Assembly (NCBI GenBank): GCA_041191405.1
Contig: JBEEOW010000001.1
Span: 3,001-67,000, forward strand
Direction: 5' to 3'
Source: Bacteroidota bacterium
GTDB lineage: Bacteria; Bacteroidota; Bacteroidia; Cytophagales; UBA9547
DNA length: 64,000 nucleotides
The translations under genes and the position numbers were made by a program. The notes under the pieces were generated by a model. That model worked only from the letters and a program-made list of their open reading frames with translations, had not been told where the DNA came from and did no database searches. Below, in pieces: positions 6,470 to 54,610 of this stretch (positions are counted from its first letter, which is position 1; every line of letters begins with the position of its first letter).

Positions 6470-6510
6470 GACTTAAGATGAAAGACTTAAGACATAAGAA
6501 TTTTTGACTT
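6470..6510 (+). repeat. Degenerate 7-nt tandem tract (GACTTAA/GATGAAA/GACATAA), G-led on + strand
   Basis: gacttaa gatgaaa gacttaa gacataa gaatttt starts 2 nt after the GT2 stop codon. Confidence 0.75.
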
Positions 6511-6519
6511 TATAATAAT

Positions 6520-6560
6520 AAGCCCTGAAAGGGCGAAATAACAAAGCGATGGGTGCAGCC
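6520..6560. repeat. Small GC-rich hairpin repeat (family 'AAGCCC-N-GGGC...GATGGG')
   Basis: aagccctgaaagggcgaaataacaaagcgatgggtgcagcc is homologous by eye to 59468-59509 and to part of 12748-12800. Confidence 0.6.
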
Positions 6561-6582
6561 AATCTTATAAATTATAGAAAAA

Positions 6583-6612
6583 AGAGTCTACAAATTCACA
6601 TTTGCAGACTCT
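6583..6612 (-). terminator. Likely hslU terminator
   Basis: 13-bp stem agagtctacaaat/atttgcagactct (1 mismatch) with 4-nt loop, followed on the minus strand by tttttct. Confidence 0.65.
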
Positions 6613-6659
6613 AAACTCTAAACTCTAAACTCTTAACCCTAAACTCTTAACCCTAAACT
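6608..6659 (-). repeat. Degenerate 7-nt tandem tract (GAGTTTA/GGGTTAA on minus strand)
   Basis: + strand reads actctaa x3 then actcttaaccctaa x2. It abuts the hslU stop codon (6660-6662). The minus-sense RNA would contain no C. Confidence 0.85.
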
Positions 6660-51729: not shown

Positions 51730-53610
51730 TTACCATTTATTTTTGATTAATGAATTGTTGTAATATTGTCTGTAAGCTTTAATTCTTGGTTCAAAAATCT
51801 TTAAAATTGAGTCATTTTTTATTTCTTGGTCGTTTAATGAATTTTTGATAAGTACTTTATTATCAGAATTACTAAGTGCTATATAAATATTGTTTGCAGT
51901 GAATAATCGGAGTTCGTTGTTATCAAAACAAAGTGCCTCAGGAATGTTATTGTTTTGGAATAAATTTTTGCCAAAATGTAAGCTACTTTGCGAAGGCTTA
52001 TATCCTAAAACCGATAAAACAGAAGGCATAATGTCAATTTGTTGTGCAATAATTGAAGTATCAGCTTTGAGTTTTATTTTAGGATGATAAAATACTATTG
52101 GAACACTAAACTCACCTTTTTTATTGAAATAAGCTGGTTTTGAGGTCATTTGAGTATGGTCAGCAGTGAGAACAAACAATGTATTATTGAACCAAGGTTG
52201 CTTAGAAGCGGTTTCAAAAAACAGCTTTAAAGCATTATCTGCATAGCCAATACTTTCATGAATTTCTAAATCCCCTTTTGGGAATTTGTTGGTATATTTT
52301 TCAGGAATTGTATAAGGTTGGTGAGAGCTTAAAGTAAATACCGAAGCTAGAAATGGTTGTTTATAAGTTGTTAATTGCTTTGAAAAATATTGTAAATATG
52401 GTTCATCAAATATGCCCCAATTGCCATCATAGTCTTTTTGGTTTGGATATTCAAATAAACCTGAATATTGTTGAAAACCAGCGATTGGCGCAAAGGCATT
52501 AAAACCCATTGTACCATTTTTACCTCCATGATAGAATGCAGTTTTATAACCTTTATTAAGCATTTCTGAACCTAGGCCAGTTAATTGATTTGTTTGGTAA
52601 AAACCTGTTATATAAGCTTCTGGCATCATAGAAGGTAAGCCTGCAAGTACAGATGGCATCGCTTCGATAGAAGTTCGTCCATTTGCAAAACCATGTTTAA
52701 AAAACACACTTTGTGGAGAATTTGCTAAGGAATCAAAGAAAGGAGTGTAGCCATTTTTGTTGCCATTACAAGCGCCAATGTACTCAGCATCAAAACTTTC
52801 AAGAATTAATATTACTACATTTTGTTTTGTATTGAAGTAATTAGATGGAACATATTCTTTTTTTATAATATTGAAAGCTTCTTGATCGGTTTTGAAGAAA
52901 TTTTTGCTTTCTACTTCTCCAACTATATCATAAGAGGATATGAAGGTATGTGTTGAATTTAATGAAAAATGCCCAAGTATTTGTGGGTTTAAAACAAAGG
53001 CATAATTGGGTCTAAGGGGACGAAGTTGCCAGCCACCTCTTATTCCTAAAATACTAATTGCAATATATGGTAGCAATAAAAGTGATAACGAAATATATGT
53101 TTTTTTTGTATATGACTCTTTTATAATTGCTTCATTTTTAGGAAAGTATTTAATAAAAATGAATAATATAGCTAAAAGTATAATACTTAAATACCAGTAA
53201 TAAATAGCAATTTGAATACTTTGTTCAAATACATCTCCAGCTATACCAAGAATATCTCTTTGTGTTCTTCTACCAACATATTTAAAAAATTCACAATCAG
53301 AAAAGTTTAATATTATGAAAGGTAAGTTTACTGCCAATAATAAATATTTTAATATCTTTTGAGAAATATTTTTCTGAAAAATAGGGGCTGGTAGCACAGA
53401 AAAAAGCCAGATTCCTGCATTTAAGGTTAGTATTGCTGAAAAGTCGAATCGTAAACCATGTAAAAAAGCGAGAAGTATTTCTATAAATTTGGCTGATTGA
53501 AAAGCCTTGAAATTTAGAATTAAAAATGTGACTCTCGCAACAATGTATATGAGTGATATCCAAGCAAACTGCTTAAATACATTCTGATAGATTTTCTTAG
53601 TTGTTTCCAC
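51730..53610 (-). CDS. LTA-synthase/sulfatase-family membrane protein (phosphoglycerol/phosphoethanolamine-transferase-like)
   Basis: 626 aa. ~5 N-terminal TM helices plus an alkaline-phosphatase-superfamily domain (ILESFD...NGRTSIEA...TADH). Confidence 0.78.
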   Translation of the reverse strand: METTKKIYQNVFKQFAWISLIYIVARVTFLILNFKAFQSAKFIEILLAFLHGLRFDFSAILTLNAGIWLFSVLPAPIFQKNISQKILKYLLLAVNLPFIILNFSDCEFFKYVGRRTQRDILGIAGDVFEQSIQIAIYYWYLSIILLAILFIFIKYFPKNEAIIKESYTKKTYISLSLLLLPYIAISILGIRGGWQLRPLRPNYAFVLNPQILGHFSLNSTHTFISSYDIVGEVESKNFFKTDQEAFNIIKKEYVPSNYFNTKQNVVILILESFDAEYIGACNGNKNGYTPFFDSLANSPQSVFFKHGFANGRTSIEAMPSVLAGLPSMMPEAYITGFYQTNQLTGLGSEMLNKGYKTAFYHGGKNGTMGFNAFAPIAGFQQYSGLFEYPNQKDYDGNWGIFDEPYLQYFSKQLTTYKQPFLASVFTLSSHQPYTIPEKYTNKFPKGDLEIHESIGYADNALKLFFETASKQPWFNNTLFVLTADHTQMTSKPAYFNKKGEFSVPIVFYHPKIKLKADTSIIAQQIDIMPSVLSVLGYKPSQSSLHFGKNLFQNNNIPEALCFDNNELRLFTANNIYIALSNSDNKVLIKNSLNDQEIKNDSILKIFEPRIKAYRQYYNNSLIKNKW

Positions 53611-53638
53611 AACTCAAATTTATCAAAATAATTAGTAA

Positions 53639-53715
53639 GTTTTCAGTTTTCGGTGCTCAGTTTTCAGATGTTAGTTTTCAGTTTTGATTAAATCTTATGT
53701 CTTATGTCTAAAATC
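53639..53715. repeat. Two abutting 7-nt tandem tracts with opposite G-led strands
   Basis: + strand reads gttttca gttttcg gtgctca gttttca gatgtta gttttca gttttga, then ttaaatc ttatgtc ttatgtc taaaatc. The second tract abuts the TGA of the HTH gene at 53716-18. Confidence 0.8.
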
Positions 53716-54495
53716 TCATTCTGGATTATAAACAGAAAATGTTTTATCATCATAGAAAATCACAATCCTTTCAATTTTTTTATTTCCATTTCCTCCAAAC
53801 ATCATTTCCATCATGCTTGAATCAGCAGATTTTTGTTGGTTATTGCTGGGTTGATTATTAACTACTTGCTGTTGATTGTTATTTTGTGGAGTATTTTGAT
53901 TGTTGTAAACTTGATTTACAACTGGATTTTCAACTTGTTGTGGCGCAACAATAGGAACGGGTTGATTTACAATTGTTTTTTCTTGGTATTGAACTTCAAT
54001 TGCTTTTAACTCTTCTTTAATGCTATTATTTACAATTGTTTTTTGCTGATTAGAATTGTTAACTACTATTTCTTCTTTTACAACAATAGGTTCACTACGT
54101 TTTGGTTCGGGTAATATTACTTCCTCATCATCAAGTACATTGCTCATTAATGCAGCTTGAACAAAATTTACATTTGTACGTTCTGATTTAGGTTTATCTT
54201 GACGTTTAGCTTTTTGAAGCTCCTTTTTTTCCAATTCTTTTTTAGCAGATTGGTCTATCGTTTCAAATAAATTAGTTTGTAGCATTTCGCCTTCTCCGTT
54301 TAGTAGCCAGTAAGGATTTATATTTGTAAATTTCTGTAATGTTTTTTGAATCATATCTAAGCTAGGTTTGTTTCGCCCAGAAAGTATATGCGATACACTT
54401 GGACGCTGAACGCCAATAGTATCTGCAAAACTCGACGGACTCAAACCTTCTCGTTCCATGATTTCTTTAACCCTATCTGTAATATTATTTTCCAT
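53716..54495 (-). CDS. XRE-type helix-turn-helix protein with long Q/N-rich low-complexity region
   Basis: 259 aa. N-terminal LSPSSFADTIGVQRPSVSHILSGRNKPSLDMIQK. Residues ~190-225 are NNQNTPQNNNQQQVVNNQPSNNQQ. Confidence 0.7.
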   Translation of the reverse strand: MENNITDRVKEIMEREGLSPSSFADTIGVQRPSVSHILSGRNKPSLDMIQKTLQKFTNINPYWLLNGEGEMLQTNLFETIDQSAKKELEKKELQKAKRQDKPKSERTNVNFVQAALMSNVLDDEEVILPEPKRSEPIVVKEEIVVNNSNQQKTIVNNSIKEELKAIEVQYQEKTIVNQPVPIVAPQQVENPVVNQVYNNQNTPQNNNQQQVVNNQPSNNQQKSADSSMMEMMFGGNGNKKIERIVIFYDDKTFSVYNPE

Positions 54496-54576
54496 TGATT
54501 ACAAAAGTAAATAATTGGTTCTTTATTTCCAAATGTTATTAGTTGATTGTTGACAATTGATAGAGTTGACTATTTT

Positions 54577-54610
54577 AACTCTTAACCCTAAACTCTTAAC
54601 CCTTAACTTT
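54577..54610 (-). repeat. Degenerate 7-nt tandem tract (GAGTTTA/GGGTTAA on minus strand)
   Basis: + strand reads actctta accctaa actctta accctta actttt and abuts the stop of the S4-domain gene at 54611. Confidence 0.8.

Follow-up and report, generated by a model that had tools for sequence, protein, structure and literature searches.

The DNA analyzed here, hereafter the window, is a 64,000-nt stretch of a Bacteroidota bacterium (JBEEOW010000001.1, positions 3,001-67,000; tracts are given in window coordinates), and the elements in question are arrays of tandem heptanucleotides that lie in its intergenic spacers and adjoin the ends of genes such as hslU, alkB and the gene encoding a TonB-dependent receptor. 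Intergenic DNA accounts for 7284 nt, or 11%, of the window. An initial annotation of this DNA had listed 14 such tracts; the genes flanking them are genuine, and their labels agree with that annotation. The tracts and associated features are collected in Table 1.

Matches between bases k positions apart were counted in segments of 21 nt at thresholds of at least 17, at least 16 and at least 15 of 21. At the most stringent threshold, lag 7 yielded 8 tracts covering 331 nt, 324 of them intergenic; lags 2-6, 8, 11, 12 and 15 yielded zero tracts, the signal at lag 14 was an echo of lag 7, and 7 was the sole short tandem period of the window to exceed this threshold. At 16 of 21, lag 7 gave 14 tracts with 584 of 600 nt intergenic (lags 5 and 8, zero), and at 15 of 21 it covered 851 nt, of which 812 were intergenic, corresponding to approximately 11% of spacer DNA. 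The frequency of lag-7 matches was 0.370 over spacer DNA as a whole, compared with 0.32-0.33 at neighboring lags and 0.283 in coding DNA. Tandem Repeats Finder (TRF) reported period-7 arrays at nearly all of the annotated coordinates, and the 14 intergenic heptamer tracts are real, all of them being returned by TRF and the lag-7 scan taken together. The most permissive list comprised these 14 and four AT-only tracts without G/C polarity (385-412, 32761-32790, 54926-54965 and 55253-55300, with units such as TTAATTA), whose existence indicates that the slippage process is not tied to G. In seven locus-versus-window comparisons, JGI samples 3300051213 and 3300047392 and Logan contigs were identical to the window over five spacers of 104-315 nt; since independent assemblies match the window exactly, the tracts are not assembly artefacts. 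Array density was 133 nt per 10 kb in the window versus 8 and 23 nt per 10 kb in relatives (2.4 Mb), i.e. period-7 tracts are 6-16 times scarcer there, and the high abundance of arrays is lineage-specific.

Table 1. Heptamer arrays and the features associated with them (window coordinates, or contig identifiers in the last two rows).
Position	Strand	Feature	Context	Further observations
6470-6510	+	G-led array GACTTAA/GATGAAA/GACATAA	starts 2 nt past the stop codon of GT2 open reading frame (ORF) 5601-6467(+)	first 29 nt recur unchanged at L084 4860-4888, a conspecific but unlinked locus
6583-6612	-	canonical intrinsic terminator of hslU, 13-pair stem and T5	directly 3' of the hslU heptamer array	
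6608-6662	-	G-led array TAGAGTT/TAGGGTT/AAGAGTT, ~7.5 units	TAG, the stop codon of hslU, serves as first unit	G 17, C 0; G phase 8/8
12693-12735	+	G-led array GTTTTCA/GTTGTCA	begins with the first base past the stop codon of the amine-oxidase-family (hemY) ORF 11385-12692(+)	
12749-12860	+	GC-rich hairpin cluster	between both arms of the spacer	first hairpin scores as Rfam Acido-Lenti-1
12893-12936	-	array ACTCTTA/ACCCTAA, C on + strand	71 nt upstream of TauE ORF 13008(+)	G strand: G 15, C 0
15982-16040	-	array TCAATCT then ATTATCT/AACATCT, C on + strand	middle of 747-nt divergent spacer; gene assignment ambiguous	G-free run 90 nt
24202-24243	+	single array GTGAAAA/GTGAAAT, G on + strand	flanked by the small post-stop hairpin of ORF 24293-24805(-) and, on the other side, by the operator/promoter region of ArsR-type ORF 23809-24132(-)	C-free run 94 nt; closer to upstream stop (49 nt, hairpin in between) than to start (69 nt)
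24961-24989	-	array AACTCTT/AACCCTT, C on + strand	runs into ATG of ORF 24990(+)	only array of the 14 abutting a start codon
35065-35095	+	G-led 5' arm GAGTTTA/GGGTTTA	begins at the base after the TonB-dependent receptor stop codon	fills, with 35115-35171, the entire 104-nt convergent spacer
35115-35171	-	3' arm CTCAACT x4, CTTAACT x2, C on + strand	ends in the stop codon of the DUF4249 ORF(-)	95% matches (TRF)
39328-39465	+	long C-less array GTAAGAT/GTGAAAT, 14-nt super-period, G on + strand	36 nt upstream of cvfB-like ORF 38461-39291(-)	
39488-39545	-	array ATTTCAC/CTTTCAC, C on + strand	overlaps the alkB-like stop codon (TGA, in the phase of the unit)	partly complementary to 39328-39465
53639-53689	+	weakly polar array GTTTTCA	28 nt upstream of the start of the sulfatase-family ORF (53610, - strand)	G 11, C 6
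53690-53718	-	short array, GACATAA/GATTTAA in gene sense	abuts the stop codon of HTH ORF 53716-54495(-)	unit family as at 6470-6510
54577-54613	-	array AACTCTT AACCCTA, C on + strand	abuts the stop codon of S4-domain ORF 54611-54820(-)	
L153, L181, L184, L185, L188, L195, L197, L213		groES-groEL spacer arrays, period 7	just upstream of groEL	
L175, L179, L183, L212		groES-groEL spacer arrays, period 8	just upstream of groEL	

The composition of the arrays is skewed, and most of them lie at gene ends. The initial annotation had described one invariant G per 7 nt; the phase is indeed 100% G in 10 of the 14 tracts, and 5/6, 7/8, 7/8 and 12/19 in the remaining four. It had also noted the lack of C over more than 100 nt at 39328-39465, where C is absent and the C-free run extends over 153 nt (39322-39474), and the longest G-free runs of the window (66-90 nt) all fall on tracts. 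The eight tracts that it had placed after stop codons, G-led in the sense of the gene, either overlap the stop codon or start 0-2 nt away from it, with abutment and polarity as described; in total, the distance to a gene end is at most 2 nt for nine of 14 tracts, eight of them at stops and one at a start, with P ~3e-9 under uniform placement within the spacer (Poisson-binomial). The stop codon usually forms a degenerate first unit, with TAG, TGA or TAA in phase inside the repeat, as had been remarked for hslU (TAG) and alkB (TGA). Start-side arrays mostly end 26-71 nt short of the ATG. Among the six tracts that had been assigned to starts, the one at 24961 runs into the ATG, and three are weak points of the polarity: 24202 is nearer the upstream stop, 15982 lies in mid-spacer and 53639 is weakly polar. 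The caveats attached to the initial annotation, assignment by proximity and the presence of both G and C in GTTTTCA units, named the true weak points.

An automatic polarity test in the window gave 12 conforming cases and two that did not conform, namely an AT-only tract and the 39328 tract, whose call was truncated; both of these exceptions are artefacts. The G-containing strand runs 5' to 3' away from the nearest ORF, whatever the orientation of that ORF; the earlier statement that it 'follows gene polarity' captured a real polarity in misleading words. Because G is in the sense strand after stops and in the antisense strand before starts, the left part of a spacer is G-rich and the right part C-rich on the + strand, and two arrays within one spacer therefore read G-arm, then C-arm, on either strand. 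All five two-tract spacers of the window (6470/6608, 12693/12893, 35065/35115, 39328/39488 and 53639/53690) have this order. Divergent spacers carry two tracts in 2642 nt versus 12 in 4435 nt of other spacer DNA, although n is small.

The inward strand, which reads toward the nearest ORF, and the outward strand differ in coding terms as well: summed over the 14 tracts, start codons number 3 on the inward and 61 on the outward strand, and the outward strand has stop codons in all three frames in nine of 14 tracts. Inward strands contain 4-21 YC dimers, about one per 7 nt in most arrays, with few in the GTTTTCA-type arrays (1 and 3). In composition only, and with the GTTTTCA arrays excepted, the inward strand is what would be expected of a Rho-loading (Rho utilization, rut) site, such sites being C-rich, G-poor, unstructured RNAs of roughly 60-80 nt provided with YC dimers. 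We saw no gradient of unit homogeneity along the window tracts, and directional (inside-out) array growth is rejected on that ground. No tract has more than two runs of G3 or C3, four runs of three or more G being needed for a G-quadruplex, and quadruplex formation by the window tracts is excluded by sequence; polarity and convergent pairing are nevertheless intact. The units are AT-rich, with about one G each.

The orientation recurs outside the window. In independent Bacteroidota-like loci from the 2.4 Mb of relatives, which form a sparse independent sample of non-orthologous spacers in which ORFs were called only crudely, it was the G strand's 5' end that lay nearer the ORF in 23 cases versus 5 (p = 0.0009); the few tracts of the relatives conform as well. 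Adjacent polar pairs in all datasets were in the G-then-C order 26 times and in the C-then-G order never, with 3 pairs from the window under strict criteria, 8 from strain contigs (redundant, representing 4-5 independent cassettes), 4 from relatives and 11 from IMG/VR contigs collected with the pattern (ACTCTNA)4. Perfect inverted repeats of the ordinary kind (stem of at least 9, loop of 3-40) had no G-first bias (12:11 in the window, 170:200 in relatives). The polarity therefore belongs to the tandem-repeat arms, and a general hairpin rule for the G-first order is rejected. The polarity rule also appears to hold for the few period-8 arrays and viral contigs examined.

A recurrent architecture was found between groES and groEL. 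In unrelated Bacteroidota metagenome contigs, many groES-groEL spacers consist of a G-arm, a loop and a C-arm of tandem repeats that run from the groES stop codon to the groEL ATG, with lineage-specific units. Among 30 groES-groEL spacers of at least 60 nt, 12 were G>C over the first half and C>G over the second, one had the reverse order and 17 were mixed. The groES-groEL spacer of the window itself (42086-42124, 39 nt) has no array.

Arrays of at least four ACTCTNA units also occur in 55 viral contigs of 31-64% GC (L097-L151, IMG/VR), including giant-virus metagenome-assembled genomes (MAGs). One of them (L116) has an array of ~290 nt, and several are rich in heptamer arrays, e.g. L131 with 19 tracts in 7.7 kb.

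Strain variation could be followed in the Usp-MarR-CMD-AhpC region past the window end, where sequence was reached for about 10 kb only, by means of contigs from conspecific strains that carry an identical Usp protein. These contigs are 94.7-99.6% identical in the MarR, CMD and AhpC genes. The CMD-AhpC spacer contains (GACTTAA)n...(CTTAAGT)n in L084 and L089, and (GGGTTAA/GAGTTTA)n...(CCCTAAA/CTCTTAA)n at the orthologous site in L085, L088 and L092; the MarR-CMD spacer contains GAGTTTA...AACTCTC in most strains and GAGTACT...AGTACTC in L085 only, and differs between L084 and L086 by exactly 14 nt, i.e. two units. In all strain variants a G-led left arm faces a complementary, C-led right arm (z from -3.5 to -6.1, scored against shuffled sequence), both arms change jointly, and the 52 nt adjoining the MarR ATG are invariant. 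The comparison of orthologous spacers suggested by the initial annotation thus revealed unit-number polymorphism and swaps past the window end; for the tract spacers of the window itself, all recovered contigs came from the same strain, with identical spacers and no variation, and for one window protein searched for strain contigs no record was found.

The initial annotation had further stated that each tract has its own consensus and that the tracts are not copies of one mobile sequence, which is only partly true. Five unit families recur at unlinked sites (among them ACTCTNA/ACCCTNA at six, GTGAAAT/GTAAGAT at three, GTTTTCA at two and GACTTAA/GACATAA at two), the 14-nt super-unit AACTCTT AACCCTA is common to the 54577 tract, the 6608 tract and L088, and the 29-mer GACTTAAGATGAAAGACTTAAGACATAAGA is identical at window position 6470 and L084 position 4860. 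With unit families and a 29-mer shared by unlinked loci, purely local invention does not account for the arrays, and slippage and copying between arrays both appear to operate, as has been shown in part.

The contigs also differ outside these spacers. L085 to L087 have extra small ORFs around the Usp gene relative to window 56-63 kb and an extra array with C on the plus strand that abuts the stop codon of an OstA-like gene, where the window has none; L088 has TPR and AIRS genes upstream of the Usp gene. Logan short-read contigs carrying the hslU or DUF4249 gene (L001-L003, L234-L236) end ~14-31 nt inside the adjoining heptamer array. Arrays of this kind break short-read (k-mer) assemblies, and MAGs of such lineages would fragment exactly at gene boundaries.

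In the window, the arms of 35060-35175 pair well (minimum free energy -27.4 kcal/mol, z = -5.25, 0 of 200 shuffles as good) and those of 39292-39545 more weakly (z = -2.25). Among the strain contigs, pairing was found at L084 4840-4978 (z -4.3 and -5.8), L088 7007-7133 (z -3.5 and -6.1) and L085 8200-8310 (z -4.9 and -5.2). The hslU array lies between the hslU stop codon and a canonical terminator (6612-6583, - strand) and therefore in the 3' untranslated region (UTR), and the ahpC-CMD array is intercistronic, reaching from stop codon to ATG, as are the groES-groEL arrays of other taxa. At least some arrays (hslU, ahpC-CMD) thus occupy a 3'UTR or intercistronic position, by which transcription of some tracts is supported. 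A terminator scan of the tract spacers found no canonical terminator beside an array other than that of hslU, and the view that heptamer stem-loops are themselves canonical intrinsic terminators is rejected, as they lack a U tract. Promoter-like boxes lie between the 39328-39465 array and the cvfB-like ATG (TACTTTTG) and between the array and the MarR ATG in L084 (TAGTTTTG); both match the TAnnTTTG -7 promoter motif of Bacteroidetes. The arrays upstream of the cvfB and MarR boxes more plausibly represent the distal arm of the post-stop structure of the upstream gene. A scan for sigma-70-type promoters gave matches that do not exceed those of shuffled sequence and is uninformative in AT-rich Bacteroidota DNA. 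At the gathering threshold, Rfam 15 gave no match on any tract.

The sole Rfam match of the window, Acido-Lenti-1 at 12749-12795, is borderline (37.3 bits versus a gathering score of 37). It corresponds to the first of three or four GC-rich hairpins between the heptamer arms 12693/12893, and the whole stretch 12690-12940 folds with z = -8.7. At 24139-24182, directly upstream of the ArsR-type HTH gene 23809-24132 and between that gene and the 24202 array, lies an 18-pair palindrome (TGTAACTGATTTGTTAC...GTAATAAATCAGTTACG), which is probably the operator of the ArsR-type gene. A dispersed palindromic intergenic element of ~60-140 nt occurs at 10706-10758, 16185-16300, 17846-17985 and 40184-40306 and at L084 ~5720-5830; its core reads AGCGAAAAAT...CTTTACGGTTGCTGA...GTCGAAGC..., its copies are 86-92% identical, and it has the look of a miniature inverted-repeat transposable element (MITE) or of a repetitive extragenic palindromic (REP) sequence, unrelated to the heptamer arrays. 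The window further contains a 419-bp tandem duplication (two copies, 91% identical; 43339-44183) spanning the small ORFs 42543-44091, a 33-nt x2.6 repeat (44230-44316) just upstream, and two copies, 97% identical, of a 34-nt palindromic motif TTTACGGTTGACAAGGTTTGCAACCGTTGTCAAC (56385-56574) in the convergent spacer between LpxK-like and OstA-like genes.

The initial annotation knew of no description of such a polarity rule in Bacteroidota, but the rule itself is not new: the boundary rule has been published for Xanthomonas and Nostoc, and oriented heptamers for Bacteroidetes. Rehm et al. (2015; PMC4692102) described heptamer repeats of the units GGGNATC and GGGGA(C/T)T in Xanthomonas campestris, X. 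axonopodis and Nostoc PCC 7120, in which the G strand is sense up to 50 bp past stop codons, in many cases overlapping the stop itself, and antisense within 50 bp upstream of ORFs. [quoted passage not shown] The window arrays resemble them in being mostly intergenic heptamer arrays with boundary polarity, stop-codon overlap and convergent pairs, and in the variation of array length and sequence among close relatives; the tract counts in divergent spacers given above point in the same direction, at small n. They differ in their AT-rich units with one (sometimes two or three) G and without quadruplex capacity, in the coexistence of several unit families in one genome, in the absence of a four-unit preference, and in their Bacteroidota host, which lacks Shine-Dalgarno sequences. 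A G-quadruplex-capable unit defines the sub-class of Rehm et al. (2015), not heptamer long simple-sequence repeats (LSSRs) in general.

MacGregor (2015; PMC4679880) reported direct heptamer repeats, TAACTGA and others, from intergenic DNA of Beggiatoaceae, Cyanobacteria and Bacteroidetes, including arrays in Flexibacter litoralis, Gramella, Aequorivita and Elizabethkingia (Cytophagia, Flavobacteriia). In F. litoralis, 12 of 14 sets are forward and 1-43 nt upstream of an initiation codon, one is reversed directly after a stop, and indels between strains occur in 7-nt steps (MacGregor, 2015). That study followed one unit only and described neither a G/C strand rule nor convergent pairs. TAACTGA resembles the TAACTCT/TAACCCT units upstream of starts in the window; as a tandem dimer it is absent from both window strands. 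As cited there, Mrazek (2007) regarded heptamers as the commonest class of long simple-sequence repeats, perhaps arising by polymerase slippage. What is new here are the AT-rich, quadruplex-incapable units, the 26:0 pair order, the pairing of arms, the joint arm swaps and the groES-groEL architecture.

Heptamer simple-sequence repeats resembling the short tandemly repeated repetitive (STRR) sequences, as named in the initial annotation, are the correct analogue. The STRR units of heterocystous cyanobacteria (CCCCAGT, TTGGTCA and CAACAGT) form dispersed tandem heptamers in non-coding DNA. The window arrays share this dispersed non-coding arrangement and differ in units and phylum; the three STRR units occur in the window as scattered single copies, with no arrays. 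REP sequences and bacterial interspersed mosaic elements (BIMEs) offer a further parallel: their stem-loops stabilize upstream mRNA (E. coli malE-malF), and REPs are conserved units of ~35 bp moved by REP-associated tyrosine transposases (RAYTs). The window arrays resemble them as imperfect palindromes in 3'UTRs or between cistrons (ahpC-CMD; groES-groEL in other taxa), dispersed and strain-variable, and differ in that their arms are tandem heptamers of many unit families. In a Nostoc preprint, effects on reporters were credited to heptamers next to the recF and recO start codons, and deletion of heptamer repeats is reported to have changed the response of recO reporters to NtcA and LexA. Upstream of start codons, Bacteroidetes, which lack Shine-Dalgarno sequences, have AUG depletion and low structure (Baez et al., 2019; PMC6847099); with tracts masked, the sense strand over the 20 nt upstream of window starts is itself poor in G (58 G versus 90 C), which fits this AUG depletion.

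We are highly confident that the arrays are heptanucleotide LSSRs of the class comprising the Xanthomonas/Nostoc GGGNATC repeats, cyanobacterial STRR sequences and the Bacteroidetes heptamers of MacGregor (2015). They are slippage-prone, with indels in multiples of 7 nt, turn over fast, are bounded by constrained sequence and are strictly polar, and their arms are often complementary. The explanation that we favor as a whole, covering identity, origin, geometry and selection on transcripts, has a probability of roughly 60%. Under it, arrays would arise and change by slipped-strand mispairing, as the two-unit strain difference suggests, and also by copying or recombination between arrays, to which the identical 29-mers and whole-cassette swaps point, and would fill unconstrained spacer ends up to and including the stop codon. 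Slippage would generate arrays in either orientation, and selection on transcripts would retain one. The inward RNA, G-free, would contain no AUG, GUG or UUG, would not fold on itself and would carry many YC dimers; the outward RNA would be C-poor with stop codons in all three frames. With both arms in one transcript, a hairpin would sequester the C-arm and may stabilize the upstream message or couple translation. The selective rationale for the orientation is the tentative part of this account, possible at odds clearly short of even, and readings as translation insulators, as hairpins for stability or coupling and as Rho-loading sites are not separated by sequence alone.

Several observations weigh against this explanation. 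The collections contain no close relative for a genome-wide test, the best identities being 69-72% for HslU in GTDB genomes (Cytophagales), 80% for GroEL in JGI metagenomes and, after the self-match, 64% for the CvfB-like protein. In high-GC viral contigs, where ORF calls are unreliable, nearest-ORF polarity was 29:21. With tracts masked, the background after stops (56 G versus 72 C) is not G>C, which leaves the after-stop polarity without independent compositional support; the same count rejects background skew as the cause on the stop side, such skew being compatible only with the 20 nt nearest the start codon on its upstream side. In three of the five two-tract spacers, pairing is poor or absent: the arms at 53605-53720 lack pairing (z ~0), and at 6470/6608 and 12693/12893 the folding signal (6465-6665 and 12690-12940) comes mostly from internal hairpins. 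Since these spacers and single arrays exist, hairpins alone are not the answer and hairpin formation is not the general reason for the polarity. For several start-side arrays, a plausible promoter intervenes before the gene, so that they would not belong to its own leader, which limits the start-codon-free rationale to read-through transcripts. Finally, we infer every functional step in this organism from sequence.

One alternative is that the arrays are neutral debris of slippage, produced by a lineage-specific trait of replication or repair that makes 7-nt slippage frequent, spreading through whatever DNA is unconstrained and without function, with polarity stemming from mutational asymmetry or from purifying selection only. 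The strong lineage specificity of array density (133 versus 8 and 23 nt per 10 kb), the rapid strain turnover without conservation of unit identity, the exact ending of arrays where constraint starts, at stop codons and promoter regions, and the polymerase-linked heptamer slippage of Mrazek (2007, as cited in PMC4679880) would all suit it. A purely neutral origin is nevertheless hard to square with the 26:0 order, difficult to obtain from mutational bias, with the joint variation of both arms between strains, which keeps complementarity, and with the recurrence of the groES-groEL architecture in many lineages with unrelated units; the polarity, moreover, ignores the direction of replication, alternating within single spacers, and the gradient of unit homogeneity that directional growth would leave is missing. 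We consider this account unlikely.

A functional alternative, the second of three that the initial annotation had put forward (UTR or leader RNA elements, Rho-loading tracts, protein-binding arrays) and one that we consider rather unlikely, makes the arrays Rho-loading insulators: Rho would load on inward read-through or antisense RNA and terminate it, transcripts from a gene's own promoter, situated between array and ATG, would escape, and in operons the G-arm would mask the C-arm by pairing. Such loading would be served by inward strands that lack G for 66-90 nt at a stretch and, in most arrays, offer about one YC dimer per 7 nt; TAnnTTTG promoter-like boxes lie between array and ATG at cvfB (window) and MarR (L084), complementary arms are found in the operon-internal ahpC-CMD spacer and non-complementary or single arrays flank separate transcription units, and the missing G-first bias of short ordinary hairpins fits a kinetic argument that matters only for long arms. 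On the other hand, the GTTTTCA-type arrays are poor in inward YC dimers, and the hslU array precedes a perfectly good intrinsic terminator. To our knowledge, cyanobacteria have no Rho. Nostoc nonetheless shows the same upstream-antisense preference (Rehm et al., 2015), which speaks against Rho as the sole cause. That the arrays are miniature mobile palindromes of MITE or REP type with heptamer arms, single arrays being half-elements left by deletion, is improbable, even if the 29-mer at window 6470 and L084 4860 preserves the same order of variant units, the super-unit is common to 6608, 54577 and L088, and whole cassettes are replaced at orthologous sites between flanks 95-99.6% identical: neither conserved termini nor target-site duplications were seen, arm length varies in 7-nt steps, different families share one spacer (6470/6608, 12693/12893, 53639/53690), the stop codon is taken into the array in phase, and the true dispersed palindrome (10706, 16185, 17846, 40184) looks quite different. 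Least probable, and by our estimate very improbable, are elements acting as DNA, either periodic protein-binding sites or non-B DNA (G-quadruplex, i-motif) as proposed for the Xanthomonas/Nostoc repeats. The near-invariant G every 7 nt, the equivalence of three units (21 nt) to two helical turns and the altered response of the recO reporter to NtcA and LexA in the Nostoc preprint would accord with such elements; polarity persists in tracts with at most two G3 runs, where quadruplexes are excluded, and at least five unrelated unit families together with strain swaps at one site argue against a single sequence-specific protein.

STRR and LSSR sequences have been catalogued in bacteria since the 1990s, with no accepted function, and the only published explanation of their polarity at gene boundaries is G-quadruplex formation. 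This explanation cannot be general, because the window units show the polarity and cannot form quadruplexes. The question moves instead to the shared properties, i.e. the G-free inward strand, the pairing of arms and the 7-nt slippage step. The polarity could reflect an asymmetry of the genetic code, in that start codons all include a G and stop codons all lack C; if so, one and the same repeat would give a start-codon-free, unstructured, Rho-accessible inward RNA and a stop-rich outward RNA. Whether boundary polarity of tandem-repeat arrays is a general bacterial rule independent of G-quadruplexes, with arrays serving at gene boundaries as inexpensive insulators of transcription and translation that renew themselves, and paired arms as intercistronic hairpins (groES-groEL, ahpC-ahpD-like operons), is a broader proposition that we regard as doubtful. 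The cassette swaps between strains and the recurrent groES-groEL architecture would provide concrete, testable loci.

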